A stretch of DNA of 64,000 bases, from contig JBIOWE010000004.1 of assembly GCA_044868145.1 (NCBI GenBank), positions 203,197 to 267,196 on the forward strand. Direction: 5' to 3'. Under the pieces are notes generated by a model. The model was given only the letters and a program-made list of their open reading frames with translations. It was not told the origin of the DNA and ran no database searches. Below, piece after piece: positions 495 to 60,881 of the stretch (position 1 is the stretch's first letter; every line of letters starts with the position of its first letter). The DNA comes from Patescibacteria group bacterium (GTDB taxonomy: Bacteria; Patescibacteriota; Patescibacteriia; UBA10025; JBIOWE01). A program made the translations under genes and the position numbers.

Positions 495-497
495 TCT

Positions 498-1362: not shown

Positions 1363-1403
1363 AGTGAACTTATATTTGGCCATAGGTAGCAAGCTTTCTT
1401 ATT

Positions 1404-2546: not shown

Positions 2547-2559
2547 ACCAGGAGGAAGC

Positions 2560-2775: not shown

Positions 2776-2856
2776 TGTGTCAGGCGCTGCGCAATAATCA
2801 CGCGTAGCGCTTTTTCTATACGTGTTAAGGTTCATTTGATATACTGCATGCAGAAT

Positions 2857-4599
2857 ATGGCCAAAAACGAGGACACAATCCATCCAACAACCGATCAGGG
2901 AATTGCCGATCTCATGGGTGAAAACCACGCAAGCAAGCCAGCGGTTGCGTCCGAAGAGCAACAGCAGAAATTCAAAGAAAAGATGCAAGATATCGAGATT
3001 CGCGAAAAAGAGCGAATTGCGCGAGATCGTGCAAACGAACTTGGTATCGGTTATATCGATCTGAAAGGGTTTCCCATAGCGCCGGAAACTCTTTCCTTGA
3101 TTTCGGAAGAGCAAGCTCGAAAGTGTAGAACGGTAGCGTTTTTGCACAGTGGCAATGAGCTCCGGCTCGGCACCATAGATCCGGAAAACCCGGACGTTGT
3201 TGCGTTACTGCATGAACTGGTTGAGCGTGAGCATGTGAATGGCGCGCTGTATTATATTTCCGAACACAGTTTAGAGCATGCGCTGAAAAATTATGCACGT
3301 TTGCCAAAACATATGCAGCAGATCGGCGGTGTTGCAATAAGCGCCGCTGACTTGCAGAAGCACCAGGCGAAGATCGGTAACTTTCGCGACATAGCCGATA
3401 GCGTGTCACGTGTCTCTTTATCGGACGTGATGACCGTCATCATCGCCGGCGCGGTACAATCACGAGCGTCCGACATTCACATCGAGGCCGAGCAAGACGA
3501 CGTGAAGGTTCGCTACCGCATTGACGGCGTTCTCCATGACGTCGCTAGCATGCCGCATGACCAGTGGCCTAAAATTATTAGCCGGATAAAATTACTCGCC
3601 CATTTGAAAATTAATATATCGGACGTGCCTCAAGATGGTCGCTTCACCATTACGTTACCTAAGGAAGAAATCGACGTCCGCGTTTCATCGGTGCCAACTG
3701 CGTATGGCGAAAGCGTTGTGATGCGGTTACTCATGTCGTCGTCCGCACGCTTAACATATGATGATCTTGGCATACAGGGCGAAGCGCATCTTCTTCTCGA
3801 GCGCGAGTTAAAACGTCCGAACGGAATGATCCTTGCAACGGGGCCAACCGGATGCGGAAAAACGACAACGCTCTACGCGCTACTCAATAAACTCAACAGC
3901 CCGGAAACAAAAATCATAACTCTGGAAAACCCCGTCGAATACAAAATTAAAGGAATCAATCAAAGTCAGGTGGACACAAGTCGCGGCTATAATTTTGCAA
4001 AAGGACTACGTTCCATACTTCGTCAGGATCCGGACGTCGTGATGGTCGGCGAAGTGCGCGATCCGGAAACAGCCGAAATCGCGATCCAGGCAGCGCTCAC
4101 CGGACACCTACTGCTTTCGACCATGCATACCAACAGCGCGGCAGGAACAATCCCTCGCCTGCTCTCGATGCAAGTCAAACCCTTTCTGCTCGCACCCGCA
4201 CTCAATGTTATTATCGGCCAGCGGCTTGTCAGAAAGATATGCGAGCACTGTAAGGTTGAGAAAAAAATAGATAAAGAACAGTCATCCCGCGTGCAAGAGG
4301 TTATTGCATCGATGCCGGAACACGCAAAAAAAGAGGCCGAATCTAAACCATTAAAGTTTTACGAAGGGAAAGGCTGTCGAATATGCAGTGAAATCGGATA
4401 CCGAGGCAGAATCGGCGTTTTTGAAGTATTTGTGGTTGACGAAGACGTGGAAAAAATGATTCTCGCAGGACAAATATCCGAGCATGAACTGCAGGGCCTT
4501 GCTGTCAAAAAAGGGATGTTGACGATGGTCCAAGACGGCATCCTGAAAGCGATTGCCGGCGTAACGACCGTCCAGGAAGTGTTTAAAGTAACCGAATAG
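2857..4599 (+). CDS. pilB: Type IV pilus assembly / type II secretion ATPase PilB/GspE
   Basis: T2SSE_N-like N-terminal domain, Walker A GPTGCGKTTT, Asp/His boxes, and a C-terminal tetracysteine (CEHC...CRIC). The ORF track starts at 2836; 2857 (MAKNED) is the more likely start. Confidence 0.9.
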   Translation: MAKNEDTIHPTTDQGIADLMGENHASKPAVASEEQQQKFKEKMQDIEIREKERIARDRANELGIGYIDLKGFPIAPETLSLISEEQARKCRTVAFLHSGNELRLGTIDPENPDVVALLHELVEREHVNGALYYISEHSLEHALKNYARLPKHMQQIGGVAISAADLQKHQAKIGNFRDIADSVSRVSLSDVMTVIIAGAVQSRASDIHIEAEQDDVKVRYRIDGVLHDVASMPHDQWPKIISRIKLLAHLKINISDVPQDGRFTITLPKEEIDVRVSSVPTAYGESVVMRLLMSSSARLTYDDLGIQGEAHLLLERELKRPNGMILATGPTGCGKTTTLYALLNKLNSPETKIITLENPVEYKIKGINQSQVDTSRGYNFAKGLRSILRQDPDVVMVGEVRDPETAEIAIQAALTGHLLLSTMHTNSAAGTIPRLLSMQVKPFLLAPALNVIIGQRLVRKICEHCKVEKKIDKEQSSRVQEVIASMPEHAKKEAESKPLKFYEGKGCRICSEIGYRGRIGVFEVFVVDEDVEKMILAGQISEHELQGLAVKKGMLTMVQDGILKAIAGVTTVQEVFKVTE

Positions 4600-4627
4600 A
4601 CCTCACGGATAAAAGACCGCGTGCAAA

Positions 4628-5215
4628 TCAAGCGGCCTTTTGTTTTCCCTCTTGAAGCTTTTCGTAATGTATTTTATAGAGCTGCTCTTCCCCCACCTCG
4701 CCGGGTTGATCGCCGTGAACACGCAGCAGGAGCAGCCGAGCGTCTTTAGGGGAAATGTCGCCGCTGAGAATGAAATTCCCTTCTTGATATTCGAGCGCGC
4801 CTTCAGGTACGTCTTCGGCTGTCATTTTTGACTTCGCCGGCGTAACGCGCATGCGGCCTTCGCCCGGAAAAAAACCCAGCGCCGTGTTGGCAGGGAAGTC
4901 AGACTGTTCTTCGTAATAGGAAATAGCACGATCCGGATCAATCGTTGCGTTCGGCCACTCTGATTCCAGCCGGATGGGTGATGAATCGCCTATCAAGTTC
5001 TCAATGGATTCGCCGGCCATACCCCGCCACATCATTTTTTTCTGCTTCATTCGCTCCGCCTCTTCGCCGGTGAGACGTTCGAGCACGTCGCCATATTTTT
5101 GTTCAAACTCCTTCACCCAACGATCATACTCTTCTCGTGAGAGAGTAATGTGCTCCGGCCGCGGCACCTCATATTGTTTATGCGCGGGCATATTATTGAT
5201 TGGTAATGATCGCAT
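4628..5215 (-). CDS. Hypothetical acidic protein (195 aa) downstream of valS
   Basis: Long ORF co-oriented with valS and overlapping it by 23 nt. No recognisable motif. Confidence 0.5.
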   Translation of the reverse strand: MRSLPINNMPAHKQYEVPRPEHITLSREEYDRWVKEFEQKYGDVLERLTGEEAERMKQKKMMWRGMAGESIENLIGDSSPIRLESEWPNATIDPDRAISYYEEQSDFPANTALGFFPGEGRMRVTPAKSKMTAEDVPEGALEYQEGNFILSGDISPKDARLLLLRVHGDQPGEVGEEQLYKIHYEKLQEGKQKAA

Positions 5216-7586
5216 ACTGCAATTCCTCCAAGGAACCGTCCGGCTTCAGATCAGTATTGTTGACTATCTGAAGGCCCTGGAGGCGCGCCATAGTCTTTAT
5301 CCACGAACCGTTTTGTTGCACTAATCCAGCGTTTTTGCCCCAAACGGTAAGTGACACACTCGTCTCTTTACTAAGGTTACGTTCTTTGCGGTCGTTGCGC
5401 ACGCGAACAATCAATGCCTGCAAGATCGCCATTTGTTCCTCTGATTTTTCATCAAGTAGTTTTTTTTCGGACTTTGGCCAGGGTTGAATTAAGAGCAGTG
5501 TACTATCCTGTACGTTCCCCAGCCGCGACCAAAGCTCCTCCGTGACGTACGGAGCAAATGGATGCAGGAGCGTCAGAACGGTTTTGAGCGCATGGAGCGC
5601 CAGCCCAAAGTTCTGTTCAGACTTCGAAATCTCAACGTACCAGTCAGCAAATTCGTGCCAGAGAAATTCATAGATGCGCGTGCCCGCTTCCGAGAAGCGA
5701 AAACGCTCAAGATCTTCAGTCAATTCTCGAACTACAGTTTGCAGCCGGCTCATGATCCACTTGTCGGCAAGCGTATGAACTGACGGCGCTCTTTCCGCCC
5801 GTCCTTGGTCTTTGCTTACTACGAAACGGGCGACGTTCCAGAGTTTATTAATGAAATTGCGGTAGCCCGCGATTTTTTCTTCGAAGAGTCGAAAGTCCTG
5901 ACCCGGTTTTGTACCGAGCACGAGAGAGAGGCGTATCGCGTCCGTTCCGTATTTTTCCGTCATAGGGATCGGGTCAATGCCCGTGCCTTTGGATTTCGAC
6001 ATCTTTTTTCCGTCCTTGTCGAGAACGAGGCCGTGGAGATACACGGTACGGAACGGTACCTCTTTAAGAAGATATAAACTCATCATGATCATGCGGCTCA
6101 CCCAGAAAAAGAGAATGTCCCACCCTGTTTCCATAACCGACGTCGGGTGGAATATTTTCAGGTCCTTGGTTTTTTCCGGCCAGCCGAGCGTGGAAAATGT
6201 CCAGAGCCCGGACGAAAACCACGTATCTAGGGTGTCCTCGTCTTGGATAAATTCATGGGTCTTGCAGCGTGGGCATTGAGTCGGTTTTTCCGCAGAGGCA
6301 ATTGGTTTACAATTGTGCAGCGGTTTTTTGCAATACCAAATTGGAATTTGGTGGCCCCACCACAGTTGGCGCGAGATGCACCAGTCGCGAATATTCTCCA
6401 TCCAGTGAAAGTATACTTTTTCGAATCGCTCTGGGATGATGCGTATTTTCTTTTTTCTGACCGCCTTGATCGCGCGTTCGGCAAGTGGCTTCATTTTCAC
6501 GAACCATTGCAAGGAGACAAGCGGTTCAACCACCGCACCGCACCGATCGCATCGTTCGACATTATGAACATATGGCTGTTCTTTTTCAACAAATTCCCCC
6601 TCCTTCAGCTGGCGGAGTATGTTTTCTCTGCAGGCCTTTATGCTTTGGCCGAAGAATTCGCCTGCTTCTTTGGTCATTTTGCCGTCAAAGCCAATGACCG
6701 ACGTGATCGGTAATTTGTGCCTTACGCCAATTTCATAGTCGAGCGGGTCGTGGCCAGGTGTTACTTTTACTGCGCCAGTCCCAAAGTTCATATCCACCTG
6801 TTCGTCGGCAATAATGGGTATTTCTTTTTCCTTGATAGGCAAGAGAACTTTCTGGCCGACAAGATGGCTGTAGCGCTTGTCATGCGGGTTGACCGCAACC
6901 GCCTCATCGCCGAGCATAGTTTCCGGACGCGTTGTCGCAACGGTAAGATATTTCGTTGTGCCAAAGAGCGGGTAGCGAAGGAAGTACATCTTACCTTGTT
7001 CTTCTTGGTGCTTTACTTCCAAATCAGAAAGCGCCGTACGGTCATGCGGACACCAGTGGATGATCCGATTGCCGCGATAAATTAATCCATCGTTGTAGAG
7101 TTTGATAAATGCGGTCTGCACGGCCTTCGTTAATTTCGGATCCATGGTGAAATGTTCACGCGACCAGTCGCACGATGCGCCAAGTTGGCGGATTTGTTTT
7201 GTAATATGGGATCCGTATTGCTCCTTCCATTCCCAGACTTTTTCCAGGAATTGTTGCCTCCCAAGTTTGTGACGATTCATTCCCTCTTTTGCGATCATCT
7301 TCTCTACCATGATTTGTGTCGAGATCCCAGCATGGTCCGTGCCCGGCAGAAATAGTGTTTTATCGCCCGTCATCCTATGCCATCGCGTCATAATGTCTTC
7401 AATGGTCAAACCCGTGGCGTGCCCCAGATGCAAATCGCCAGTCACGTTTGGTGGCGGCATGCTTATGGAAAAGGACTTTTTCCGTTTGCCAGGTAGTTTA
7501 TCAGGATTAAAAAAACCGGACGATTCCCAGCGTTCGTAAATATTCTGCTCCACTGCCTTTGGATTGTAGGCTTTTTCAAGATCCAT
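5193..7586 (-). CDS. valS: Valine--tRNA ligase
   Basis: HIGH-type motif (PNVTGDLHLGHA), KMSKS motif (KMSKSKGT), and editing domain. 797 aa, a short form lacking the long C-terminal coiled coil. Confidence 0.95.
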   Translation of the reverse strand: MDLEKAYNPKAVEQNIYERWESSGFFNPDKLPGKRKKSFSISMPPPNVTGDLHLGHATGLTIEDIMTRWHRMTGDKTLFLPGTDHAGISTQIMVEKMIAKEGMNRHKLGRQQFLEKVWEWKEQYGSHITKQIRQLGASCDWSREHFTMDPKLTKAVQTAFIKLYNDGLIYRGNRIIHWCPHDRTALSDLEVKHQEEQGKMYFLRYPLFGTTKYLTVATTRPETMLGDEAVAVNPHDKRYSHLVGQKVLLPIKEKEIPIIADEQVDMNFGTGAVKVTPGHDPLDYEIGVRHKLPITSVIGFDGKMTKEAGEFFGQSIKACRENILRQLKEGEFVEKEQPYVHNVERCDRCGAVVEPLVSLQWFVKMKPLAERAIKAVRKKKIRIIPERFEKVYFHWMENIRDWCISRQLWWGHQIPIWYCKKPLHNCKPIASAEKPTQCPRCKTHEFIQDEDTLDTWFSSGLWTFSTLGWPEKTKDLKIFHPTSVMETGWDILFFWVSRMIMMSLYLLKEVPFRTVYLHGLVLDKDGKKMSKSKGTGIDPIPMTEKYGTDAIRLSLVLGTKPGQDFRLFEEKIAGYRNFINKLWNVARFVVSKDQGRAERAPSVHTLADKWIMSRLQTVVRELTEDLERFRFSEAGTRIYEFLWHEFADWYVEISKSEQNFGLALHALKTVLTLLHPFAPYVTEELWSRLGNVQDSTLLLIQPWPKSEKKLLDEKSEEQMAILQALIVRVRNDRKERNLSKETSVSLTVWGKNAGLVQQNGSWIKTMARLQGLQIVNNTDLKPDGSLEELQYAIITNQ

Positions 7587-7679
7587 GCCACTATTGTAAC
7601 ATGTAATCCGTTACCCGTAACCGGTAGTACGAACATTGACACACATTCATGCTACAAGCTACCAGCTACAGGTTACGAG

Positions 7680-8753
7680 TTACCGTCCAATCTCCCAATT
7701 CGGATCCGCGCTTAAGGTTTCGAGTCGTGCGAACCTTTTCGGTTTGTAAGCGAATGAACCGGCCATCGCAATCATTGTTGCGTTGTCCGTGCATAACGGC
7801 AGAGGCGCAACATGGAGCGTGATTGAGCGATTGAGTTTAGACATGTTCGTCTTGAGCGTCGTTCGGAGTAAGTCGTTTGCGGCCACGCCACCAGCAAGCA
7901 GCACGGAGCGCACTTTTTCTCGTTGCGCAGCGCGAAGGGTCTTGGCGACGAGGACGTCAACCACGGCTTGTTGAAACGACGCACAGAGGTCAGCCAGAAA
8001 ACGCTTATTGCTTATGGCGTATTGTTTATTGTTTTGTAAAAAGTAGAGTACCGATGTTTTGAGCCCAGCGAAGCTGAACTCGAGATTCGGCTTGTCAATC
8101 ATTGGCCGGGGAAAACGCAATGCGGTCGAGTTGCCGTGCTTTGCGAGTTTTTGTATTATTGGTCCGCCGGGGTATGGGAGCTTGAGCATCTTGGCAACCT
8201 TATCAAACACTTCGCCAGCGGCGTCGTCGCGCGTGGATCCAAGGAGTTTGTATTTGTTCCACCCGTGCACATGCAAGAGCTCCGTGTGTCCGCCAGACAC
8301 GATTAAAGCCAGCGCCGGAAATTTTGGCAGACTTACGTTGCGAAAGCCAGGACCCTTCACTGGCCATGTCGAGAAAATATGCCCCTCGATATGATTGACA
8401 GCTATCAGGGGTTTGTTCCACCCGAACGCTAGCGCCTTGGCCGTTTCGACGCCCACCACCAGGGCAGTCATAAGTCCCGGGCCGGCAGTAACTGCGATAG
8501 CATCAATGTTGTTGTGCGCCACCTTTGCCTTTTGCATCGCAAAGGCAATCGTAGGTATAATTGTTATCGCGTGCTCGCGGCCGGCAACTTCCGGCACGAC
8601 GCCGCCATGCTTTCGGTGAGTCGGAATCTGTGTTGCGGACAGATGGCTACGCGCAACAAAATGGTCGCCGGTTCGCTCTACAACGCTTACCGCGGTTTCA
8701 TCACACGACGTTTCAATAGCAAGAAGCTTCATTTTATGTTGACTAACAGCCAA
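7680..8753 (-). CDS. tsaD: tRNA N6-adenosine threonylcarbamoyltransferase TsaD (Kae1/YgjD)
   Basis: N-terminus MKLLAIETSCDETAVS and His/ASKHA motifs. The likelier start is the ATG at 8732 (MKLL); the track ORF extends to 8753. Confidence 0.92.
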   Translation of the reverse strand: MAVSQHKMKLLAIETSCDETAVSVVERTGDHFVARSHLSATQIPTHRKHGGVVPEVAGREHAITIIPTIAFAMQKAKVAHNNIDAIAVTAGPGLMTALVVGVETAKALAFGWNKPLIAVNHIEGHIFSTWPVKGPGFRNVSLPKFPALALIVSGGHTELLHVHGWNKYKLLGSTRDDAAGEVFDKVAKMLKLPYPGGPIIQKLAKHGNSTALRFPRPMIDKPNLEFSFAGLKTSVLYFLQNNKQYAISNKRFLADLCASFQQAVVDVLVAKTLRAAQREKVRSVLLAGGVAANDLLRTTLKTNMSKLNRSITLHVAPLPLCTDNATMIAMAGSFAYKPKRFARLETLSADPNWEIGR

Positions 8754-8873
8754 TTTTCAGTTACAATCGCACTGTAAGTTTGAGAGCGTTGAATAATTAT
8801 GAAACGCTCTCATCCCGAGCAAAGCGAGGGATCTCATGGGCTGACCTAACAGACCCCTCACTGCGTTCGGGGT

Positions 8874-8900
8874 GAAACTGTTGAATGATTCAACAGTTTC
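8874..8900. repeat. Perfect 12-bp inverted repeat with 3-nt spacer (GAAACTGTTGAA-tga-TTCAACAGTTTC), in the tsaD upstream region just before tRNA-Glu
   Basis: Read directly from the sequence. Candidate operator or hairpin. Confidence 0.6.
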
Positions 8901-8915
8901 AGTTTAGTCATTTTC

Positions 8916-8993
8916 GCCGCCATCGTCTAGGCCGGTCTAGGACGCCAGGTTTTCATCCTGGTAACCCGGGTTCAAATCCCGGTGGCGGTACCA
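8916..8993 (+). tRNA. tRNA-Glu (anticodon TTC), CCA encoded
   Basis: Manual cloverleaf: acceptor GCCGCCA/TGGCGGT, anticodon stem CCAGG/CCTGG, loop TTTTCAT, T-arm CCGGG-TTCAAAT-CCCGG. Confidence 0.85.
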
Positions 8994-9135
8994 AACATCG
9001 TATCAGCTTTTTGACCCAGCGGGTCATCCTCCGATGGAGGACAATTCCCCGCGCGTCGTCCTAATAGCCTAGTTACAGCAGCTTGAAAAGTCAGGATAGA
9101 CGAAGAGTAGCCACTTATGATAAACTAATTTTCGT

Positions 9136-9411
9136 ATGCCAAGATATCTTGTTGAGGTTCAACACGAAGACACGGTGGGTGAGTGTGATCGAGCGGCGAG
9201 ACTGCTGCTTGAACGAGGATCACATTTTCTGACGAACGCTGATTTCGGCTGTGAGGATGGGGTACACTGTGCGTGGATTATTTTTGAAGCGAAAGATAAA
9301 GATGAGGTACGCAACACGCTGCCGCCGATCTACCGCCCCCAAGCCAAGATTATTGCGTTGAACAAGTTTACACTTGAAGAAGTAGACCGACTCAAAAAGA
9401 AACACACATAG
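9136..9411 (+). CDS. Small hypothetical protein (91 aa)
   Basis: ORF between tRNA-Glu and a degenerate copy of the tRNA-Glu 3' end. No recognisable domain. Confidence 0.4.
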   Translation: MPRYLVEVQHEDTVGECDRAARLLLERGSHFLTNADFGCEDGVHCAWIIFEAKDKDEVRNTLPPIYRPQAKIIALNKFTLEEVDRLKKKHT

Positions 9412-9496
9412 GCCGACTTCAGAAAAGATCTCTACGGGAATGGAGAAACTTTTTGTTGGCCGATATTAGTTGTTTCTGCGGTGTGCCGGGGAACGT

Positions 9497-9569
9497 CCGC
9501 CGACCTGGTCCTAGACAAGACCCAGGATGACTGGTTGGCGCTGTCAGGACCAAATCCAGGTGGCGGTAA
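9497..9569 (+). pseudogene. Degenerate tRNA-Glu-like remnant ending in a 17-nt copy of the tRNA-Glu 3' end
   Basis: AAATCCaGGTGGCGGTA at 9553-9569 matches AAATCCcGGTGGCGGTA at 8974-8990. The upstream part has a D-arm-like GGTC...GACC but cannot fold into a full cloverleaf. Confidence 0.5.
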
Positions 9570-9610
9570 TGAGGAAAAACGTTGGCCGCAAGGGTAAATT
9601 TTAGGACTCT

Positions 9611-9973
9611 ATGTCCAATAAAGTCTTTCTTAACCAGCAGGGATTTATTGAGGTTCACTCCATCGGAGATCAGACCCCCGATGTGGTCACCAGTACGAAG
9701 CAGGAGTTGGCAGTGTTGGCCAAGACACTCAGTGCCAGGGGCAAGACAGTTAACATCCTGACTGATCTTCGAAGGATTGGAAAGCAGACGGGCGCCTCGC
9801 GTGCACTGGCTAAGGATATTATGGATACCATACCGTTCCGCAAAATCGCCATCTTTGGTGCCAACCGATTCCTGAAGTATGTCGTGAACTTCATTATCAC
9901 AGGTTCTGGCCACGGCCACCATGTTCGGTACTTCAATGACCATCAATCTGCCGAGACGTGGTTAAAGACATAA
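9611..9973 (+). CDS. STAS/SpoIIAA-like small protein (paralogue of 11579-12007)
   Basis: 120 aa. The C-terminal half (IFGANRFLKYVVNFI...ETWLK) aligns with the other copy (LCGGSRFIKYLGNYFL...FAWLRE). The STAS-like fold is my assignment. Confidence 0.6.
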   Translation: MSNKVFLNQQGFIEVHSIGDQTPDVVTSTKQELAVLAKTLSARGKTVNILTDLRRIGKQTGASRALAKDIMDTIPFRKIAIFGANRFLKYVVNFIITGSGHGHHVRYFNDHQSAETWLKT

Positions 9974-10107
9974 GTCCTCCCCTGACGTTCTTCTGTAGCC
10001 TGGGCAAGGAGGAATCCCGTTCGTGCTACCAGCCAGTCTTACTTCATTATAGTGGGCACATGAATCCTTTCTGAAACGTTTTTTGTTTTTTAACGGTTTA
10101 ATAATAA

Positions 10108-10647
10108 ATGATATCTGAAGACGATATTCAGGCCATTGTTGCTTCCGCACAAGGAGGTGACGCAGACAGCGTGGCAAAGCTCTTTGAACTGTTCAGTGAT
10201 AGGATTTTTCGATTTTTTCGGGTACGCATCTCGGATACTAAAACCGCCGAAGACCTTACACAAACGGTTTTTCTTGAAATGATTCAGGCCTTGAAACGGT
10301 ATAAGAGACAGGAAGCAAAATTTTCTACATGGCTATTTCAAATCGCACGCTTTCGCCTGATTGACGAGTATCGAAAAAATCCGCCACCCCTCTCTATCGA
10401 TGAATCGTTGCAGAATCATCCATCATTAATCGTTGATCCTCCGGGCGAAATCAGCTTGCCACGCAACATTGATAGCGCATTTGCAAAACTCCCAGAGCGC
10501 TATCAGACAATACTCCATTTGCGGTTTCGTGAGGATTTTTCCTATCGAGAAGTAGCCTATAGCATGAATATTTCGGAAGTGCATGTACGCGTCTTACAGC
10601 ACCGTGCGCTCAACGCCCTTCGCAAATTATTAAACGAACATCATTAA
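10108..10647 (+). CDS. ECF-type RNA polymerase sigma factor (sigma-70 regions 2 and 4)
   Basis: Region 2 motifs (FRFFRVRI...DLTQTVFLEM...STWLFQIARFRLIDEYR) and a region 4 HTH (SYREVAYSMNISEVHVRVLQHRALNALR). Confidence 0.85.
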   Translation: MISEDDIQAIVASAQGGDADSVAKLFELFSDRIFRFFRVRISDTKTAEDLTQTVFLEMIQALKRYKRQEAKFSTWLFQIARFRLIDEYRKNPPPLSIDESLQNHPSLIVDPPGEISLPRNIDSAFAKLPERYQTILHLRFREDFSYREVAYSMNISEVHVRVLQHRALNALRKLLNEHH

Positions 10648-10657
10648 TAAATAACGT

Positions 10658-11368
10658 ATGACCTTATTTCGCCCACAAGTAAAAAAAAGCGAGGAACTGA
10701 TTGCAGCCATTCGCAAGTCCGGAACGCATACCCTCAATCCAGATTCAAGAATGAATATACGCTCTGTTGTGTTGCAAACAAACCACACCGTAACAAAGAG
10801 CGACCCCGTTCGGTATAAGAAGCACCCAATCATGGGGATATTAACTCTTAAACTTCGACCTATGACCTTAGTGCTTATTATCATGGCGCTTATTGCGCTC
10901 ACCGGAGGCACGGTGATAGCAGCTGACGCAGCGAAACCCGGTGACTCGCTTTTTGGCATCGATCGCGCTGTCGAACGTGTCCAGCTCAATTTAAGCTTAT
11001 CCGATGTCGCTAGAGCTCGAACACAGGCGGAAATTGCCGAGGAACGCTTGCGCGAACTCCAGGAGCTCCAATCTGGGGAGGATACGGACGAAGAAGATAT
11101 TGACACCGCGGAAAACGAGGCGGACACGGCGTTAAATCAAGCGCAAGATACGCTGGATGATGTCATTGAGAATATGGAATCAAAGGATAATGAACAAGCG
11201 CAGGAACGATTAGAACAAGTTCGGCAAAAATTAGAAGATCTTGATCAGGAACGCGATACTTCCCCCCACACAAATACAGAGGAACCAACCGAAACAAATA
11301 CGGAAAACGATCCATCTTCTTTCCACTCAAACGTGAACGCTCACCAGGAAAACTCAAACAGTCGATAG
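10658..11368 (+). CDS. Putative membrane-anchored anti-sigma factor (one TM, acidic coiled-coil C-terminal domain)
   Basis: It starts 11 nt after the sigma factor stop. It has a single TM helix (LVLIIMALIALTGG) followed by an acidic, coiled-coil-rich extracytoplasmic tail. The call rests on position and topology only. Confidence 0.5.
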   Translation: MTLFRPQVKKSEELIAAIRKSGTHTLNPDSRMNIRSVVLQTNHTVTKSDPVRYKKHPIMGILTLKLRPMTLVLIIMALIALTGGTVIAADAAKPGDSLFGIDRAVERVQLNLSLSDVARARTQAEIAEERLRELQELQSGEDTDEEDIDTAENEADTALNQAQDTLDDVIENMESKDNEQAQERLEQVRQKLEDLDQERDTSPHTNTEEPTETNTENDPSSFHSNVNAHQENSNSR

Positions 11369-11578
11369 GCAACTAAAGAAGGCAGTGTGCAAACTGCACG
11401 GTTAACAATACCTGAACATTACAAAGAAGTAAGAAAAAAGCAGAACATTTTAGAAGGAATATTCCGCGTACCTAGAAAACGGCGCTTGCGCCGTTTTTTA
11501 GATCCTCGACTACATGTCGTTGCAAAAGGAGTCGGGATTTTTTACTTGTGCTAGACAGTTCCTTTTATTATACTGACT

Positions 11579-12007
11579 GTGTCTCCCAACAAAAAACATA
11601 TGCCCAACGATGTGAACGCCAATAACAAAACAAACGCTGAAGTCCAGGAGAACAAGATTTATCTTGGGGACGAAGATATTATCTATGTAGAATATCATGG
11701 ACCCCAGACCTACGAAACCATACATCGCAATTTTGTAAAAATCGAAGAGATAGCAAAGGAGTTGAGGAAAGCTGGAAAGCCAGTAAAACTTTTGAATAAT
11801 ATTGGCGGTGTTACCACGCAAACGATCGGTGCGCGTAAAGCAGGGTTGGAAACCGTACGAAAGATGAAGATAGATGCCATCGCACTGTGTGGAGGCAGTC
11901 GATTCATCAAATACTTGGGCAACTACTTTCTCAAAGCAATTGGTCATCCGAACTCTCGTTCGTTCGACACCCAAGACGAGGCATTCGCATGGCTACGAGA
12001 GGTTTAA
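11579..12007 (+). CDS. STAS/SpoIIAA-like small protein (paralogue of 9611-9973)
   Basis: 142 aa. Homologous to the ORF at 9611-9973 over the C-terminal 90 aa. Sits immediately upstream of the histidine kinase. Confidence 0.6.
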   Translation: MSPNKKHMPNDVNANNKTNAEVQENKIYLGDEDIIYVEYHGPQTYETIHRNFVKIEEIAKELRKAGKPVKLLNNIGGVTTQTIGARKAGLETVRKMKIDAIALCGGSRFIKYLGNYFLKAIGHPNSRSFDTQDEAFAWLREV

Positions 12008-12011
12008 TACT

Positions 12012-13403
12012 ATGGCCCCGCAGTCAAAGCAACTGCCCGCAGAGGAATATCGTAGCTATGTCGTTCGCAGATTGGCTGGCTTAGAGCATTTATTCACGAG
12101 AGCTTCGATCGGCGATTTTTCACAAGACGTCCAATTGCCAAAAGAAGACGATGAGTTCACGACGCTCTATGCAGGTGTCCAAGTGATGATCGAAGCCGTA
12201 CGTGAAAAAGTTGGCGAGCTACAAGAGCTCAACCGACAGTTAACGGGCAAGGTTGGTGAATTACGAGAATTAACAACTCGACTCCGCACAGAACAAGCGC
12301 GGGATCGGGCAATACTGCTCGGGATGGGTGAAGGCTTGGTTGTTGTTGATGAACGCGGGATAATAACCATGGCCAATCAGGCCTTTGAAAGCATGATGGG
12401 TTGGACCAGTCAGGAAGCGATGGGAAAATACTTACCCGACGTGTTACCAGCCCAAGATGAATCTGGCCAGCGTATTCCAAATACTGAGCGGCCATTATCA
12501 AAAGCGTTCAAGATGCACGAAACGATTATGACGGGCGTAGGCGTGAATCCGTATTATTACGTCCGCCGCGATGGGACAAGATTTCCTGTCGCAATTACCG
12601 TCAGTCCATTCATGAGCCGGGGCCGCGTGATTGGCTCCATCAATGTTTTTCGTGATATCACCCGCGAACAGGATATCGACCGAGCGAAGAGTGAATTTGT
12701 GAGCTTAGCGTCGCATCAGTTGCGAACCCCCTTGACCATTATTCGTTGGTCAGCGGATATTTTAAAACGGTATGCCGGAAAATTAAGCCCTCAACAAGAA
12801 AAATACGTCACTGCGGTTGAAGAGGCGGGCCGACAAATGGTTAATCTTGTGGATGCGCTCTTGAATGTTTCTCGAATTGAGGCAGGCAGTCTTCGAATCG
12901 AGCCAAAACCCGTTGACGTAAAAAAACTTGTTGACGGCATTTTACGAGAACTCCAGCCACTGATTGATACGCAACAACTGCGCATGCGAACGCGAGTAGC
13001 AGCGGACCTTCCGAAACTACAGGTCGACCCTGAACTCACGCGTGTCGTCATTCACAATCTCATCACGAATGCCATAAAATATACCAAGCAGCGCGGTCAA
13101 ATTTTCATTACCGTGGCGCGCGACGCCGCAAACATTAAGGTTAGCGTCCGAGATACGGGAGTCGGCATACCGGTCGAGGACCAGCCAAAGATTTTTTCCA
13201 AGCTTTATCGTGCTGAAAATGTTATGCAACTCGAGCCACACGGCACCGGGCTTGGCCTTTATATCGCAAAAGCGGTGGTTGAACAATCAGGCGGCCGCAT
13301 CTGGTTCGAGTCAAAAGAAAATTCTGGGACAACGTTTACCTTCACCTTACCGCTTCGTGGCGTGCAGAAAAAGACTGGAACAAAAATAATCTCTCCGGGC
13401 TAG
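12012..13403 (+). CDS. Cytoplasmic sensor histidine kinase (coiled-coil repeat, PAS, HisKA, HATPase_c)
   Basis: No TM segment. Internal duplication KVGELQELNRQL/KVGELRELTTRL, a PAS-like segment (LVVVDERGIITMANQAFESMMGW), an H-box SHQLRTPLT, and N/G boxes (GTGLGL). The likely start is the ATG at 12012 (MAPQSK); the track ORF starts at 11874 and overlaps the upstream gene. Confidence 0.85.
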   Translation: MAPQSKQLPAEEYRSYVVRRLAGLEHLFTRASIGDFSQDVQLPKEDDEFTTLYAGVQVMIEAVREKVGELQELNRQLTGKVGELRELTTRLRTEQARDRAILLGMGEGLVVVDERGIITMANQAFESMMGWTSQEAMGKYLPDVLPAQDESGQRIPNTERPLSKAFKMHETIMTGVGVNPYYYVRRDGTRFPVAITVSPFMSRGRVIGSINVFRDITREQDIDRAKSEFVSLASHQLRTPLTIIRWSADILKRYAGKLSPQQEKYVTAVEEAGRQMVNLVDALLNVSRIEAGSLRIEPKPVDVKKLVDGILRELQPLIDTQQLRMRTRVAADLPKLQVDPELTRVVIHNLITNAIKYTKQRGQIFITVARDAANIKVSVRDTGVGIPVEDQPKIFSKLYRAENVMQLEPHGTGLGLYIAKAVVEQSGGRIWFESKENSGTTFTFTLPLRGVQKKTGTKIISPG

Positions 13404-13445
13404 CAAGCTGTTGCCCACTGCTTGTAGCTTTGGTATTATAATAAC

Positions 13446-30737: not shown

Positions 30738-30809
30738 TGGGCGAGGATGGAGTCGAACCATCGCCCCCGTGTTTATAAGACACGTGCTCCACCGTTGAGC
30801 TACTCGCCC
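30738..30809 (-). tRNA. tRNA-Ile (anticodon TAT, i.e. UAU, decoding AUA). Unusual for bacteria. No CCA encoded
   Basis: Manual fold of the minus strand: acceptor GGGCGAG/CTCGCCC, D-arm GCTC-AACGGTG-GAGC, anticodon stem CGTGT/ACACG with loop CTTATAA (U33 and A37 present), T-arm GATGG-TTCGACT-CCATC. Confidence 0.7.
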
Positions 30810-53115: not shown

Positions 53116-53190
53116 GGGTGCGTAGCTCAGTGGTAGAGCACGTCACTGATAATGACGGGGTCGGAGGTTCGATCCCTCCCGCACCCACCA
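53116..53190 (+). tRNA. tRNA-Ile (anticodon GAT), CCA encoded, in the 16S downstream spacer
   Basis: GGGTGCGTAGCTCAGTGGTAGAGCACGTCACTGATAATGACGGGGTCGGAGGTTCGATCCCTCCCGCACCCACCA. Anticodon loop CTGATAA. Confidence 0.9.
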
Positions 53191-55486: not shown

Positions 55487-55504
55487 ATCTTTCTTGGAGC
55501 GGGT

Positions 55505-55578
55505 AGGGGGAATCGAACCCCCGGCAACAGCTTGGAAAGCTGTGGTATTGCCATTATACGATACCCGCCCGCCCGATT
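55505..55578 (-). tRNA. tRNA-Gly (anticodon TCC), CCA encoded
   Basis: Minus strand: GCGGGTATCGTATAATGGCAATACCACAGCTTTCCAAGCTGTTGCCGGGGGTTCGATTCCCCCTACCCGCTCCA. Confidence 0.85.
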
Positions 55579-55702: not shown

Positions 55703-55930
55703 TTAATCAATATATCTTTTTCCCCAACCGCTTTTGATGTACTTTTCTCTCGCAATGGCATCTTCCTTCACAACATACGCCTCATAATAAATCAACTTCC
55801 ATGGGCGCCAGGGTTTTGTGTACCTGACGAGCCCATCATTATGTTCCCGCAGTCTTTTCTTTAGGTCCCCAGCGAAGCCTTTATATAGTCGACTATCCTT
55901 CTTACTTTGTAAAACGTACACATAGTACAT
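55703..55930 (-). CDS. GIY-YIG nuclease-family small protein (UPF0213-like)
   Basis: MYYVYVLQSKKDSRLYKGFAGDLKKRLREHN is a classic GIY-YIG motif. 75 aa. Confidence 0.75.
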   Translation of the reverse strand: MYYVYVLQSKKDSRLYKGFAGDLKKRLREHNDGLVRYTKPWRPWKLIYYEAYVVKEDAIAREKYIKSGWGKRYID

Positions 55931-56251: not shown

Positions 56252-56602
56252 TTAAGGTTGCCACAAATACTTTTGTAAGTCAATCCAATATGTGCTGCTC
56301 CGTTCTGCGACCTTGATGCCCTCATGTTCAAGCACGCGTTTTTGAAGCTCGCGCGTGTGCTCTTCGCAGGTTGTGCTGATCATGCCCTGCCGATTAATCA
56401 CGCGATGCCAGGGGATCTCTCTCAATCGATCTTCTTTCAGGACATGCAAAGCCCAACCAACCATACGAGCCCCTCGGGGAGAACCGCAGAACGCAGCAAT
56501 CTGGCCGTAGGTCGCCACGCGGCCTCGGGGAATGCTCCTGACCATCGTATATACTCGTTCATAGAACGATGGCTGAGCTGTTTTTTGCGGTCGCTTTAGC
56601 AT
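56252..56602 (-). CDS. Alkyltransferase-like protein (ATL). MGMT/Ogt DNA-binding domain with Trp replacing the active-site Cys (PWHRV)
   Basis: IPRGRVATYGQIA...IPWHRVINRQG. The canonical motif is PCHRV; the W substitution defines the non-catalytic ATL proteins. Confidence 0.75.
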   Translation of the reverse strand: MLKRPQKTAQPSFYERVYTMVRSIPRGRVATYGQIAAFCGSPRGARMVGWALHVLKEDRLREIPWHRVINRQGMISTTCEEHTRELQKRVLEHEGIKVAERSSTYWIDLQKYLWQP

Positions 56603-57825
56603 TCAGACCCAAGTCCGCCAACGCAATTTTCAGTAGGCGGAGATCCCCGTTCAGGGCATTTTTCGGAATAGATACACGCCTCGTCAGAAACACTTTTTGC
56701 TTGCTGTTGTATTTTTTCGTCCGCTTCCGAGCCATACGTGATGAGAATGCGGTCCAGGTCATGCGGCTTGTAATCAGCAAATTGGTCGTTCGCAGCGCCG
56801 TTTACCATAAGGCGTAGAATGTTCCCATTGCCCGTGCAATATTGTTTCCCGTCATCCAGCGTGAGACAGAGCGGGTCGAGTTTCATCCCGATTGATGTCA
56901 GAAATTGGCCAATGGTTACGTCTGCCGCGTGGATATGGACAATGTCTCCATTGCCGTCATGCACGTGAATTTCGGGGTCAAGCTCCGCTTCCTCGGTGGA
57001 TTGGTATTTTGCTTGCGTCAGGTCAACTGTTTTTCCGTTGACGTACATCTTGAAGCCGAAGTGGGCGTGTACGGATCCGTCTGAAGAATGGATTGGGGCG
57101 TTTTGAGCCGCCTCATCAATCAGTTTTTTGAAGTCCTCAAGGGATCGCGGATTTTGAATTTTTACACCTTGAAGGAAAAATGACGGCGTCGCGTTTACTT
57201 TTAACGCTGTGCCGGATGCAATGTCTTCTTTCACGAGATCATTGATTTCCGAAGATTGCATATCCGTTTTAAATTGCTCGACGCTCAGGCCGATAGACTG
57301 CGCATAATTCGTAAACAGTTCGACCTCATTTGGCGCTGTTGACCATTCGGATTGTTTCTCGAATAATATGTCGTGAAACGCAAAGAATTTATCTTGCTTG
57401 CCTGCGGCTTCCGCGGCTCGTGCAGCCGGCATTGCGTTTGGATGGATGTTTACGAGCGGATAATGACGATAGACGATAGCGATCGTGTCGCCATAGGCCT
57501 CGCTGAGTTGTTTTACGACAGGATAGTATGCACCACACGCAGGGCATTGGAAGTCAGAATATTCAATAAGAACAACGTTCGCGTCGGGGTTTCCTTTTAC
57601 CCAGTCGCCTGACTCAACTTTTGTTGATGCCGTATTTGTGTTTTGAGTAGAATTTCCGCCCCATATGACAAGTCCCCAAACGGCAAGACCGATCGCCGCA
57701 ATCACGGCAACCCAGATGACGATTATTTTCGTGCGTTTTGATTGTTTTGTTTGTTGTTGTGAAGCGGCCTTTTCTTGTTTTTTTAACTCTCGACGCTGAC
57801 GTTTTGTGAGGTGTTGTTCATCCAT
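56596..57825 (-). CDS. Membrane-anchored DsbA-like thiol:disulfide oxidoreductase (CPAC) with a C-terminal His-rich extension
   Basis: TM helix (IIVIWVAVIAAIGLAVWGLVIW), thioredoxin-fold motif FQCPACGAYYP, then a domain of about 130 aa with HAHFGF...HVHDGNGDIVHIH and a terminal Cys pair. Probable start MDEQHL at 57825; the track ORF extends to 57981. Confidence 0.7.
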   Translation of the reverse strand: MDEQHLTKRQRRELKKQEKAASQQQTKQSKRTKIIVIWVAVIAAIGLAVWGLVIWGGNSTQNTNTASTKVESGDWVKGNPDANVVLIEYSDFQCPACGAYYPVVKQLSEAYGDTIAIVYRHYPLVNIHPNAMPAARAAEAAGKQDKFFAFHDILFEKQSEWSTAPNEVELFTNYAQSIGLSVEQFKTDMQSSEINDLVKEDIASGTALKVNATPSFFLQGVKIQNPRSLEDFKKLIDEAAQNAPIHSSDGSVHAHFGFKMYVNGKTVDLTQAKYQSTEEAELDPEIHVHDGNGDIVHIHAADVTIGQFLTSIGMKLDPLCLTLDDGKQYCTGNGNILRLMVNGAANDQFADYKPHDLDRILITYGSEADEKIQQQAKSVSDEACIYSEKCPERGSPPTENCVGGLGSEC

Positions 57826-58116
57826 AGTAGTTTGTATTTTACCACACGCCAAGCAACGAAACAAATGAAAAAAGGCCATTTCAGTGATCAATGGCCGTTT
57901 TTCTGGTCGGCCTTCGTGGAACACGTTAGAACCTGGTGTAAAGAAAATGCTGGAAAATTTGAGGTTCCGATTATTGGCCAAAATACTCCTTAAGTGTATC
58001 AGGTGGCTTGTCCACTTTTAAGGTGGAAAAATTGCACATATGAGCAAGAACCCTAAAAGAGATGCCTTATTTCTTTTTGGCCACTGCTGACTTGAATGCC
58101 AGCAAAGCTGGCGTTT

Positions 58117-59532
58117 TTAATCAAACATGGTTAGTAACCGCCAGGTAGCAAAACCAAAAAAACTATATGCTGCACCACGTAAGGCTAAAATGTATACAGG
58201 AAAATCTATCCTTTCTTTAAAGTAAACAGAATCGTAACTTTGTTCTAATTTTGAATACAAAAGTGCAAGCTCGCCCAAATTAGACCCCCGCCATTTCACA
58301 ATTTTATCAATCATTGCAATCAGGCTGTGCTTGATATTATCTTCTTCGTTGTTCTCCAGGTCCTTTTTAACAAACGGCAAAATCAATTCACCCAGTTGTT
58401 TCGTTTTATTTTTATTGGCTGAAGAGTCATCACTCCTTAGACCGTGAATCAAATTAAATACGCCCGTATTGAAGAGTTTTTCTAAATTAGCATTTTGCTG
58501 TTTCTTTAACACCCCAATCGCCTTGACTATTCTAACTTCATTGGAAACCAGTTCCTCTTCTAAGCCAATTAGAGGAAATTCCGACCTAATTTTTAAAATG
58601 ATGTCTAGGCACCGGACAAAGACTTTTCGGGCTATAGGAAGATGGTGCCTATGGCCCTTTTTGCCTTCTGGGTGAATATATAGCAGTGGCTCTGGTTTAA
58701 TGTCACCGTGAACGATTGAATTCCTCAGCTTCCAAAATTTATCAAGCCACAAACTTAAGTTTTTTGAATGGCCAAGGACATTCAACAAAGCCGTTTTTAT
58801 CTGGGCCTTTACTCCACGCTCTTCTTCCTCTGGTCTTAATAATGCCTCAAGTGCTGTATGAACATTTAGAATTGCCTCACTTAAATCTACACCTCGCCCA
58901 TAATGTGAATAAGAACGGTTGAACCACTCAATAGACCGTAAGATTCTTTTGTCTTCATCGTGTTTAAGAAGAAAGTTTCCGTAGAGATAAAAAGCTTTAA
59001 AGTAGTCATTTTCTTTTATTTGATTGGTTGTTAAGACCAATGAGTGCACCTCGGTTTGGGGCATGTAAGGATGGTTTGTTTTCCCTTTATGTAAATGGAA
59101 ATTAAATGCACTTTCGTTATTCAAAATACCTTGATAATAAATGAAATCATCGCCTCCATTTAATTGCTCGCCAGTTATTTTAAATACAAAATAATTGAAA
59201 TGGTCAAATTTACTGTTTTCTTTTAAATCGCTTAGCTGGGAAAATCTTAAAACAGCCGATATCTTTTTTAATTTATCTTTGAGGTTTTCCCATTGTTTGA
59301 GACTAGCCACATAAGTAATTGCATAAGACCATTGAAATATCTGTTGGCTTCTCCCAAATCTGAACAACTTTGCAATATTGAGTAGATGGCTTCCAACGTC
59401 CTCTATTTCTTTATCTACATTTTCTCTGTAGGAAGGTTTAATGCTGAAACCATCAATTTCAATTCCGTCCTTTTCATATATGAAAAGATATGGAAAAATG
59501 ATTATCATTAAATGTTTAGGCCGCTTCCTCAT
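58117..59532 (-). CDS. AT-rich, foreign-looking 471-aa protein with an Rx4H (RNSIVH) HEPN-type motif. Candidate abortive-infection/defence (Abi-like) gene
   Basis: GC is far below that of flanking genes. No TM helix. Central motif KLRNSIVHGD fits the HEPN Rx4-6H signature. Located between a thiol-oxidoreductase gene and a tRNA cluster. The family assignment is inference. Confidence 0.45.
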   Translation of the reverse strand: MRKRPKHLMIIIFPYLFIYEKDGIEIDGFSIKPSYRENVDKEIEDVGSHLLNIAKLFRFGRSQQIFQWSYAITYVASLKQWENLKDKLKKISAVLRFSQLSDLKENSKFDHFNYFVFKITGEQLNGGDDFIYYQGILNNESAFNFHLHKGKTNHPYMPQTEVHSLVLTTNQIKENDYFKAFYLYGNFLLKHDEDKRILRSIEWFNRSYSHYGRGVDLSEAILNVHTALEALLRPEEEERGVKAQIKTALLNVLGHSKNLSLWLDKFWKLRNSIVHGDIKPEPLLYIHPEGKKGHRHHLPIARKVFVRCLDIILKIRSEFPLIGLEEELVSNEVRIVKAIGVLKKQQNANLEKLFNTGVFNLIHGLRSDDSSANKNKTKQLGELILPFVKKDLENNEEDNIKHSLIAMIDKIVKWRGSNLGELALLYSKLEQSYDSVYFKERIDFPVYILALRGAAYSFFGFATWRLLTMFD

Positions 59533-59665
59533 TGTTTTCTTTACTTTTGGAAATGGGATAGCCCACCCCTATCTTCGGAACTGTCGCTCGTTAATAATCA
59601 GGAGTGTTTATTAGAAATCCCAGTTTATGATTAAAAAATACCTTTGCTTCTACTCCGTGTCAAGC

Positions 59666-59695
59666 TAACATGGTGAGGTCATATCATTGACCTCA
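59666..59695. repeat. Perfect 12-bp inverted repeat ATGGTGAGGTCA-tatcat-TGACCTCACCAT in the divergent promoter region between the AT-rich gene and a small + ORF
   Basis: Read from the sequence. Candidate operator. Confidence 0.6.
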
Positions 59696-59701
59696 CCATT
59701 T

Positions 59702-59905
59702 ATGTTACCTCAAAAAGCAATCGAGGACCTCAAAGAGACTTACCGGAAAGAGTTCAGACAGGAACTCTCCGACAAAGAGGCCTGCGAAATGGCATATCGT
59801 CTCTTGAGCTTCTTTGAGATTGTTCTCCGGCCGGTCCCCCAAGACAGTGAAAAGAAGGGGCCAGGGAAGAGTGAAGGGGCTGGCCAGCTTCCCCTATTCT
59901 CCTAG
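59702..59905 (+). CDS. Small hypothetical protein (67 aa) immediately downstream of the palindrome
   Basis: ATG at 59702 (the track ORF starts at a TTG at 59687). Followed by a terminator-like hairpin TGGCTC...GAGCCA + TTTTTAG at about 59985-60010. Confidence 0.35.
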   Translation: MLPQKAIEDLKETYRKEFRQELSDKEACEMAYRLLSFFEIVLRPVPQDSEKKGPGKSEGAGQLPLFS

Positions 59906-60059
59906 CAGAGGTTCTAACCTCTCACTTCCCCTGTGGATAGATAGAAAATCTTATCTCTCTGCGCAACTTTTCATCTACCAAAAAATGGCTCTTGGGTGAG
60001 CCACTTTTTAGACATTTCCACAGCCTGGTTGGAAAAATTGCGCATCTGGATAAACTATT

Positions 60060-60131
60060 TCGGGGAGACAGGATTCGAACCTGCGACCCCTCGCTCCCAA
60101 AGCGAGTGCGCTACCGCTGCGCCACTCCCCG
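60060..60131 (-). tRNA. tRNA-Pro (anticodon TGG)
   Basis: Minus strand: CGGGGAGTGGCGCAGCGGTAGCGCACTCGCTTTGGGAGCGAGGGGTCGCAGGTTCGAATCCTGTCTCCCCGA. Confidence 0.85.
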
Positions 60132-60240
60132 ATGTTCCTTAATGCCGCCGGTCGTAATCCCCGCCTGCACGACGTTTCGGCGGGGGAACGTATATTTTCA
60201 CGTTCCGGGGCAAGCGAACCGACGTTATTTGTCACCGAAA

Positions 60241-60324
60241 TGCCGAGGGTGGGAATCGAACCCACACGACCTTGCGATCACGGGATTTTAAGTCCCGCGC
60301 GTCTGCCTGTTCCGCCACCCCGGC
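60241..60324 (-). tRNA. tRNA-Leu (anticodon TAA), long variable arm
   Basis: Minus strand: GCCGGGGTGGCGGAACAGGCAGACGCGCGGGACTTAAAATCCCGTGATCGCAAGGTCGTGTGGGTTCGATTCCCACCCTCGGCA. Confidence 0.85.
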
Positions 60325-60395
60325 TTGTTCTATCTGAGCGTGTATCTAGTGGAGTTCACCCAGCACATGGAGTGAAAACGAAATGGTGCCGGGCA

Positions 60396-60415
60396 TGGAG
60401 CGGGAGACGGGATTC
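60396..60415 (-). repeat. 20-nt duplicate of the tRNA-Gly(GCC) 3' end (TGGAGCGGGAGACGGGATTC), 155 bp from the intact gene. att-like scar within a hairpin-rich 250-bp spacer
   Basis: Identical to 60571-60590. Neighbouring hairpins: GCCCCGCC-aac-GGCGGGGC and GACTGCC-acc-GGCAGTC. Confidence 0.55.
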
Positions 60416-60570
60416 CTTCTCCCCTGTCGCCCCGCCAACGGCGGGGCTCCTCCTCCGAAGCCCGGGTCTCTCATCGACTGCCACCGGCAGTCGCTTCGAG
60501 TACCCTGCGAATCCCAAATAATGTTTAGCGAATCGCCTTTGTGCTAGTTATTATCTTTGTGCCAAAGGTC

Positions 60571-60645
60571 TGGAGCGGGAGACGGGATTCGCACCCGCGA
60601 CCTCTTCCTTGGCAAGGAAGCGTTCTACTGCTGAACTACTCCCGC
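60571..60645 (-). tRNA. tRNA-Gly (anticodon GCC), CCA encoded
   Basis: Minus strand: GCGGGAGTAGTTCAGCAGTAGAACGCTTCCTTGCCAAGGAAGAGGTCGCGGGTGCGAATCCCGTCTCCCGCTCCA. Confidence 0.85.
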
Positions 60646-60748
60646 CCTCCCAAATTTTCGAAATATCACGGTTGACCTTTTATCGGTAAAACTCGATTTT
60701 ACTTCGAACGTTTTTTCTACTCGAAAATTTGGGAGGGCACGCCACTCA
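60646..60748 (-). promoter_or_regulatory. Structured leader of tRNA-Gly(GCC): inverted repeat CCTCCCAAATTTTCGAA (60646-60663) / TCGAAAATTTTGGGAGG (60721-60738), plus a conserved box shared with the tRNA-Gly(TCC) leader
   Basis: Complementarity and inter-locus conservation read from the sequence. Confidence 0.45.
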
Positions 60749-60806
60749 ATTATTGATGACGTCGCGAATAATGTTTTTATTTTTTGCCTCGATTTCTTCG
60801 AAATTT

Positions 60807-60881
60807 TGGAGGCCACGAGGGGAATCGAACCCCTGAATAGAGGTTTTGCAGACCTCTGCCTTCCCACTTGGCTACGTGGCC
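60807..60881 (-). tRNA. tRNA-Cys (anticodon GCA), CCA encoded
   Basis: Minus strand: GGCCACGTAGCCAAGTGGGAAGGCAGAGGTCTGCAAAACCTCTATTCAGGGGTTCGATTCCCCTCGTGGCCTCCA. Confidence 0.85.

Follow-up and report, generated by a model that had tools for sequence, protein, structure and literature searches.

HEPN proteins are known companions of restriction-modification systems, and at least 16 clades with such a link were predicted by Anantharaman et al. (2013), PrrC being the studied case (PMC3710099). As published, the HEPN fold is a bundle of four helices in which helix 2 carries a conserved acidic residue and helix 3 ends in an Rx4-6H motif, with an insert separating these two helices (PMC3710099). 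HEC-08, the EC042_2821-type HEPN protein (DUF3644), was discovered within restriction-modification and Hma systems by way of "guilt by embedding", and mutation of the histidine in its Rx4-6H motif abolishes defence (bioRxiv 10.1101/2024.01.29.577857). The Apea clade is also described as embedded in restriction-modification operons of some bacteria. Here, we analyzed a gene for a 471-amino-acid protein located beside a cluster of transfer RNA (tRNA) genes in a 64-kb stretch of contig JBIOWE010000004.1 (assembly GCA_044868145.1) of a Patescibacteria group bacterium, referred to throughout as the window. The protein belongs to an unnamed family within the known class of restriction-modification-linked HEPN ribonucleases (RNases), with an N-terminus that, as modelled, has a new fold, and with an unusually broad range of partner systems. 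On balance, we read the window gene as a stand-alone copy of this three-domain HEPN family, whose product would be a dormant back-up RNase for defence, in the manner of PrrC.

The open reading frame (ORF) of 471 codons given in the preliminary description of this stretch was recovered at the same position, on the minus strand. The HEPN proposal had been based on the sequence KLRNSIVHGD (residues 268 to 277) and its fit to the Rx4-6H signature. Since R.{4,6}H by itself is present in 27 of the 37 window ORFs of at least 200 amino acids, and the stricter R[NHD]x3-5H in eight of them, the motif alone is no evidence and takes its meaning only from conservation and structural position. By both, the proposal held, with RNSIVH being the invariant core of the family and lying, in a structural model of high confidence, where HEPN proteins have their motif. 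The gene and the parts of its protein are the following:

58117 to 59532, minus strand: HEPN-family gene, a 471-amino-acid ORF; the protein is intact and has every family-invariant residue
58978 to 59532, minus strand: N-terminal alpha/beta domain (residues 1 to about 185), where FPYLF, E42 and N138 are conserved; a fold without a solved relative
58573 to 58965, minus strand: predicted HEPN core (residues about 190 to 320), from the AlphaFold2 (AF2) model
58708 to 58725, minus strand: RNSIVH, the catalytic-type Rx4H motif (R270 to H275), at the C-terminal end of helix 3 and invariant in 35 homologues
58120 to 58545, minus strand: C-terminal all-helical domain (residues about 330 to 471), with conserved SNEVR and WRL, from the AF2 model and the alignment

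Among 5.8 billion proteins searched, 52 homologues were identified, nearly all of them 460 to 480 amino acids long and originating from Nitrospirota, Nitrospinae and uncultured candidate-phyla-radiation-like contigs; none is named and none has a Pfam domain. With a profile search against 1.84 billion cluster representatives, 565 relatives were obtained at E ≤ 1e-3 (301 at E ≤ 1e-10), mostly of about 470 to 540 amino acids and most strongly conserved at residues 190 to 355. Among others, W203, F204, S207, D216, E229, W262, R270, H275, G276, R302, C308 and N331 are invariant in 35 close homologues, and for R270, H275, E229, W203 and W262, conservation of 90% or more persists when the alignments extend to distant relatives (26 and 99 to 105 sequences) of as little as 16% to 22% identity. 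The AF2 model built on the family alignment (predicted local distance difference test, pLDDT, 88.7; predicted template modelling score, pTM, 0.77) comprises three domains. Its HEPN core consists of helix 1 (residues 193 to 206, with EWFNRS), helix 2 (217 to 232, with E229), an insert helix (241 to 253), helix 3 (257 to 275), a beta-hairpin (283 to 296) and helix 4 (297 to 318). The four-helix bundle that was sought around RNSIVH is therefore present in the model, and its topology, a prediction and not a solved structure, agrees point by point with the published HEPN fold in the position of the motif, the acidic residue E229 in helix 2 and the insert between helices 2 and 3. The compact Foldseek matches were HEPN proteins only (2hsb, probability 0.72, TMt 0.52; 5yep_C), at non-significant E-values. 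Given the conservation and the predicted topology, we regard the HEPN assignment as well supported, not proven.

The N-terminal alpha/beta domain is presumed to be a sensor or regulatory domain. A PD-(D/E)xK nuclease was considered for it and rejected, as E42 and N138 are its only invariant residues and no structural match was obtained. For the C-terminal domain, profile matches in the PDB were limited to designed helical repeats or low-complexity helices. Pfam and PADLOC searches with the distant relatives yielded no curated family. Weak matches to DUF5557 (Pfam) were seen in 9 of 99 distant relatives (best E 3.8e-4), and no paper on DUF5557 was found.

The defence role is supported by genomic context. 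Gene neighbourhoods were compared for about 22 distinct homologue loci (designated by L numbers), and in about 13 of those the gene is found beside or inside a restriction-modification system, often with a 4-bp overlap. In six lineages (L024, L001/L003, L028, L029, L030 and L005/L006), it lies directly 3' of a Type IIG restriction-methylase gene coding for 1072 to 1103 amino acids, with stop and start codons overlapping as ATGA, and these partners match the PADLOC model REase_MTase_IIG along its whole length (E 1e-275 to 1e-287). Of the three homologues closest to the window protein, two are found in such loci (76% and 72% identity) and the third (L027, 72%) in a Type II locus, where the gene is placed 3' of a methylase and endonuclease pair, as it is in L031. 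The pairwise identities among the HEPN proteins correlate with those among their Type IIG partners (r = 0.82, 10 pairs), which indicates that the pair travels as a module. Type III systems are represented by L010-L012, L038 and L039, where the gene is located between Mod (split into 755 and 94 amino acids) and an endonuclease of the BPTD_3080 family. In the Type I locus L037 (positions 699-5011), the order is hsdM, a 469-amino-acid family member, a 206-amino-acid HEPN_AbiU2 protein (E 1.5e-8) and hsdS, while in L053 the gene stands beside a DUF1156 methylase gene and a HEPN_Swt1-DUF499 gene. With relatives inside or beside several kinds of restriction-modification system, the defence function proposed for the gene in the preliminary description is supported.

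Other loci show the gene apart from intact partners. Intact solitary copies occur amid housekeeping genes in L004, L007 and L051, and further mobile contexts include RadC with MNT/HepT (L008), an integrase island (L013) and MazEF (L043). In L041 (positions 1591-3212; also L042), all that is left of a Type III mod gene is an 86-amino-acid ORF that fuses its N-terminus to its C-terminus, next to an intact HEPN gene, and in L046 (positions 446-2034; also L047), a C-terminal remnant of mod is kept and the HEPN gene is frameshifted. These cases look like snapshots of decay in both directions, and the persistence of an intact HEPN gene where the methylase has decayed argues against a DNA endonuclease of the kind that is safe for its host only with protective methylation. 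There was no family match in viral contigs, nor in phage and plasmid collections searched with the window protein and two distant relatives as queries, and thus nothing points to carriage of the family by phages or plasmids.

Some of these loci have features of their own. L037 has two different HEPN genes side by side within one hsd operon. L053 (positions 1-13419) is a dense defence cluster with an SNF2/ResIII helicase, a 1374-amino-acid HATPase_c_3 protein, MqsR/MqsA, SecB, the DUF1156 methylase and HEPN_Swt1-DUF499. In L001 (positions 1-6004), two Type IIG/IIL-like restriction-methylase genes are found in tandem, and the HEPN-coupled Type IIG gene is split into ORFs of 304 and 746 amino acids that together match the 1072-amino-acid single-chain enzymes.

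In the mechanism that we propose, the HEPN domain would most likely be a metal-independent RNase, as predicted from established HEPN biology, with R270 and H275, and probably E229 and N271, as its predicted catalytic residues. Homodimerisation would form the active cleft, a composite RNase site, as in HepT, ApeA and other single-HEPN enzymes. In relatives, the gene closes a restriction-modification operon and is translationally coupled to it, or is embedded between restriction-modification genes, and we take this to be the ancestral setting. By analogy with PrrC, the most probable role of the protein would be that of an effector in abortive infection or a latent second line of defence. The domains on either side would hold the RNase silent until an infection cue arrives, possibly the failure or inhibition of the restriction enzyme (compare PrrC and Stp). 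Once activated, the RNase would cut cellular or phage RNA, whereby translation would be halted or phage RNA destroyed, and phage production stopped.

The likeness to PrrC/RloC and to the other restriction-modification-linked HEPN clades lies in an Rx4-6H HEPN protein inside or beside such operons. The relative in L037, between hsdM and hsdS, occupies the same place as prrC, and a latent RNase forming a second line of defence is the expected logic in both cases. However, the family lacks an ABC ATPase, having other, uncharacterised flanking domains instead, and is therefore not PrrC/RloC. It also joins Type IIG, II, III, I and DUF1156 systems, whereas PrrC is found with Type I only, and the window copy, unlike PrrC, is without an hsd operon or any restriction-modification partner. 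HEC-08 was likewise recognised by embedding in defence operons, but consists of an N-terminal HEPN domain and zinc-ribbon domains; DUF3644 gave a marginal match in one of 99 distant relatives (E 0.016), and PADLOC, "guilt-by-embedding" candidate models included, gave no match to the family.

Several points weigh against reading the window gene as a back-up RNase. Some 9 of the 22 or so distinct homologue loci have no restriction-modification neighbour, and tblastn with all partner proteins identified no restriction-modification gene or remnant in the 64 kb of the window. The window copy is thus an orphan, and for such a copy the PrrC-like logic, being borrowed from the relatives, may not apply. 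RNase activity, trigger and phage phenotype are predictions throughout. Regarding the domain assignment, HEPN_Apea scores 13.6 bits on the window protein against a cut-off of 24.4, and no HEPN model reaches its curated threshold. Sequence searches of PADLOC, NCBIfam, PHROGs and the PDB returned no match for the window protein, and an hhalign comparison of the family with the AbiU2 neighbour in L037 gave nothing.

An extension of the proposed mechanism, which we put forward as a tentative and rather less probable idea, is that the family is a portable "restriction guard". The N-terminal domain would sense the failure or inhibition of whichever enzyme the gene is coupled to (Type I, II, IIG, III or DUF1156/DUF499), and the gene could also work on its own in abortive infection after loss of the partner, as in this genome. 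If the back-up role is correct, several hundred sequence clusters, at present outside Pfam, PADLOC and NCBIfam, would join the RNA-targeting back-up effectors that accompany restriction-modification systems, and bacteria with small genomes of the candidate-phyla-radiation type would be able to keep such effectors without a restriction system. Since it combines five unrelated partner systems with intact orphans, the family is convenient for addressing two open questions, namely, whether such effectors sense the restriction partner or the phage itself, and the recognition target of the new N-terminal domain. The window copy itself is a testable defence candidate but is without the partner that makes the family interesting, and a HEPN protein in a defence context will not surprise a specialist.

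Tight coupling to restriction enzymes could also mean that the protein is an accessory subunit and not an RNase, its helical bundle binding nucleotides or DNA, or regulating or assembling the enzyme, with the orphan copy being decaying baggage. The 4-bp overlaps and the co-divergence with the Type IIG enzymes fit such a role, as does the original description of HEPN as a nucleotide-binding domain; RNase activity in the family is itself a matter of inference, and at least one relative is frameshifted (L046). Nevertheless, one protein is joined to five mechanistically unrelated modification systems, which argues against a dedicated subunit of one enzyme. R, H and E residues of the catalytic type are kept throughout the superfamily, several orphans are intact, one of them next to a decayed mod gene, and the window copy retains all invariant residues. 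We therefore consider an accessory subunit unlikely.

A similarly small chance is given to the family being a divergent branch of ApeA, in which case the protein would be a direct sensor RNase, and its adjacency to restriction-modification genes would reflect the clustering of genes in defence islands. ApeA, from work by Gao et al. in 2020, is reportedly a single-gene defence system, and PADLOC-DB 2.0 includes a model for it. HEPN_Apea (PF18739) is the only recurrent Pfam match of the family, found in 24 of 35 close members (best E 0.0026) and in 13 of 99 distant ones (best E 2.8e-5, with one alignment spanning positions 24 to 121 of the 136 in the profile), although every one of these matches is under the Pfam threshold. 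The matches to Abi_2, AbiU2 or Swt1 that were looked for following the preliminary description did not appear at significance, nor did those to any other HEPN model. Both proteins are single polypeptides with an R-N-x3-H type motif (RNKITH in ApeA resembles RNSIVH) and an uncharacterised N-terminal, possibly sensory, domain (bioRxiv 10.64898/2026.03.20.713152), and orphan copies of the family do occur. The architectures, compared by published descriptions, do not match: ApeA has about 600 amino acids, with a mostly beta N-terminus of about 300 amino acids and a C-terminal HEPN domain, whereas the family protein has 471, with a 185-amino-acid alpha/beta N-terminus, a central HEPN domain and an extra C-terminal helical domain of about 140 amino acids. 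No PADLOC model matched the window protein or 10 distant relatives at E ≤ 1, and the ATGA overlaps and Type IIG co-divergence exceed loose clustering. By architecture as by model scores, the protein does not qualify as ApeA; the HEPN core of the family may still be a distant Apea-like branch.

The region upstream of the gene had suggested a toxin-antitoxin module, with a small ORF as an autoregulating or antitoxin-like partner. Its features are listed below (GC, G+C fraction; GC3, the same at third codon positions):

59635 to 59663, minus strand: sigma-70-like promoter candidate, TTGACA-17 nt-TATTTT, scoring 10/12 in a consensus scan and about 100 nt 5' of the start codon
59670 to 59699, no strand: perfect 12-bp inverted repeat, ATGGTGAGGTCA-6 nt-TGACCTCACCAT, 6 nt upstream of the -35 candidate
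59702 to 59905, plus strand: divergent 67-amino-acid ORF from the ATG at 59702, GC 0.515 and GC3 0.60, coding status unsupported

The palindrome exists as described, but 4 nt to the right of the position first given (59666 to 59695). By our own calculation, about 0.04 perfect 12-bp inverted repeats are expected in 64 kb, and the hairpin has a predicted energy of -32 kcal/mol (z = -6.7). In a finer GC profile, it marks the switch between AT-rich and host-like composition. It was absent from all other fetched loci, being unique to the window sequence, and no conserved upstream operator was found in other orphan loci. The palindrome could be an operator, a hairpin at an insertion boundary or a terminator-like element. 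The HEPN gene is probably expressed from its own promoter, for which the site above is a candidate only, as promoter-like sites in the region are no more frequent than in shuffled sequence and so count as weak evidence. A terminator-like hairpin, TGGCTCTTGGGTGAGCCA followed by CTTTTT, is located at 59986 to 60003 (plus strand) between the 67-amino-acid ORF and tRNA-Pro, and overlaps the stretch just left of the right-hand direct repeat described below.

A HEPN toxin neutralised or autoregulated by the 67-amino-acid ORF, with the palindrome as shared operator, would account for the position of the latter, which lies between the two divergent ORFs and directly upstream of the promoter-like site. 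HEPN toxins with small partners do exist. The best compact structural matches include those to HepT (5yep, 7ae2), and HepT-MntA and RnlA-RnlB resemble the family in a HEPN fold, predicted for the latter, with a single Rx4H motif that would likewise call for dimerisation. In contrast to those systems, the family has no conserved cognate antitoxin gene, is three to four times larger and carries two extra domains. The ORF itself is real as a reading frame, but its only match among 5.8 billion proteins is itself, family searches gave nothing above noise, its composition is host-like (GC3 0.60 versus 0.35 for the HEPN gene), and no small upstream gene or palindrome is conserved at any of the approximately 22 homologue loci. 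An antitoxin role is thus unsupported. As the closest relatives are instead translationally coupled to a Type IIG enzyme of 1072 to 1103 amino acids, we consider a toxin-antitoxin module very improbable.

The composition of the HEPN gene is foreign to this genome, as had been noted from its AT-richness. Its GC of 0.359 is the minimum among all 1416-nt windows of the 64 kb (mean 0.482, standard deviation 0.029) and lies about 4 standard deviations lower than the mean, and its GC3 is 0.347, compared with about 0.48 to 0.56 in the adjoining genes. The closest homologues (72% to 76% identity) are found on unrelated contigs of lower GC. Taken together, these two observations make horizontal acquisition, from a lower-GC lineage, likely, in agreement with the earlier proposal, and the gene is the sole clear horizontally acquired defence-type gene of the window. 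That it is instead an ordinary lineage-specific housekeeping or RNA-processing gene of incidentally low GC is hardly credible: some homologues do lie amid housekeeping genes, yet the family is patchy across phyla and found in unrelated contexts, is strongly associated with restriction-modification, has a GC under that of its flanks in 16 of 20 homologue loci, and is missing beside the relatives of the DsbA-like neighbour gene.

The following features bear on the insertion site:

58024 to 58042, plus strand: left copy of a direct repeat, TGGAAAAATTGCACATATG, 19 nt, identical to the right copy at 17 of 19 positions
60030 to 60048, plus strand: right copy, separated by 11 nt from the tRNA-Pro 3' end and outside the tRNA
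60059 to 60881, minus strand: cluster of tRNA-Pro(TGG), tRNA-Leu(TAA), tRNA-Gly(GCC) and tRNA-Cys(GCA), identified with ARAGORN (Rfam tRNA, 57 to 69 bits)

The four tRNA genes reported beside the HEPN gene are thus in place; the 3' end of tRNA-Pro points toward it, and Rfam models found only tRNAs in the region. The gene lies just downstream of tRNA-Pro, without a restriction-modification partner. The two copies of the imperfect direct repeat (pattern TGGAAAAATTGC(A/G)CAT) bracket the AT-rich segment, and a direct repeat at least as good arose in 4 of 300 shuffles. This repeat is possibly an att site or a target-duplication scar. While the adjacency to the tRNA cluster stands, integration at the tRNA site is only suggested, by the imperfect repeat. 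No integrase accompanies the HEPN gene in the window, and for a single gene, the label of an island was an overstatement. With the DsbA-like neighbour as query, the best genome match was 41% to 45% identical and the best protein match 52%, with no conserved synteny.

This DsbA/thioredoxin-like neighbour (56596 to 57981, minus strand) has a C-terminal extension of about 150 amino acids, separately matched in the archaeal contig L021 (residues 250 to 379), and a TTG start 52 codons further upstream would give a longer ORF. A GIY-YIG protein of 75 amino acids (55703 to 55930, minus strand) adjoins tRNA-Gly(TCC) at 55495 to 55568. The loci L008 and L032 have a similar small GIY-YIG gene immediately 3' of the HEPN homologue, a recurrence that may be coincidence or may be due to mobile GIY-YIG elements. 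Finally, ARAGORN identified a tRNA-Ile with the anticodon TAT at 30738 to 30809 (minus strand), besides the tRNA-Ile(GAT) at 53116 to 53190.

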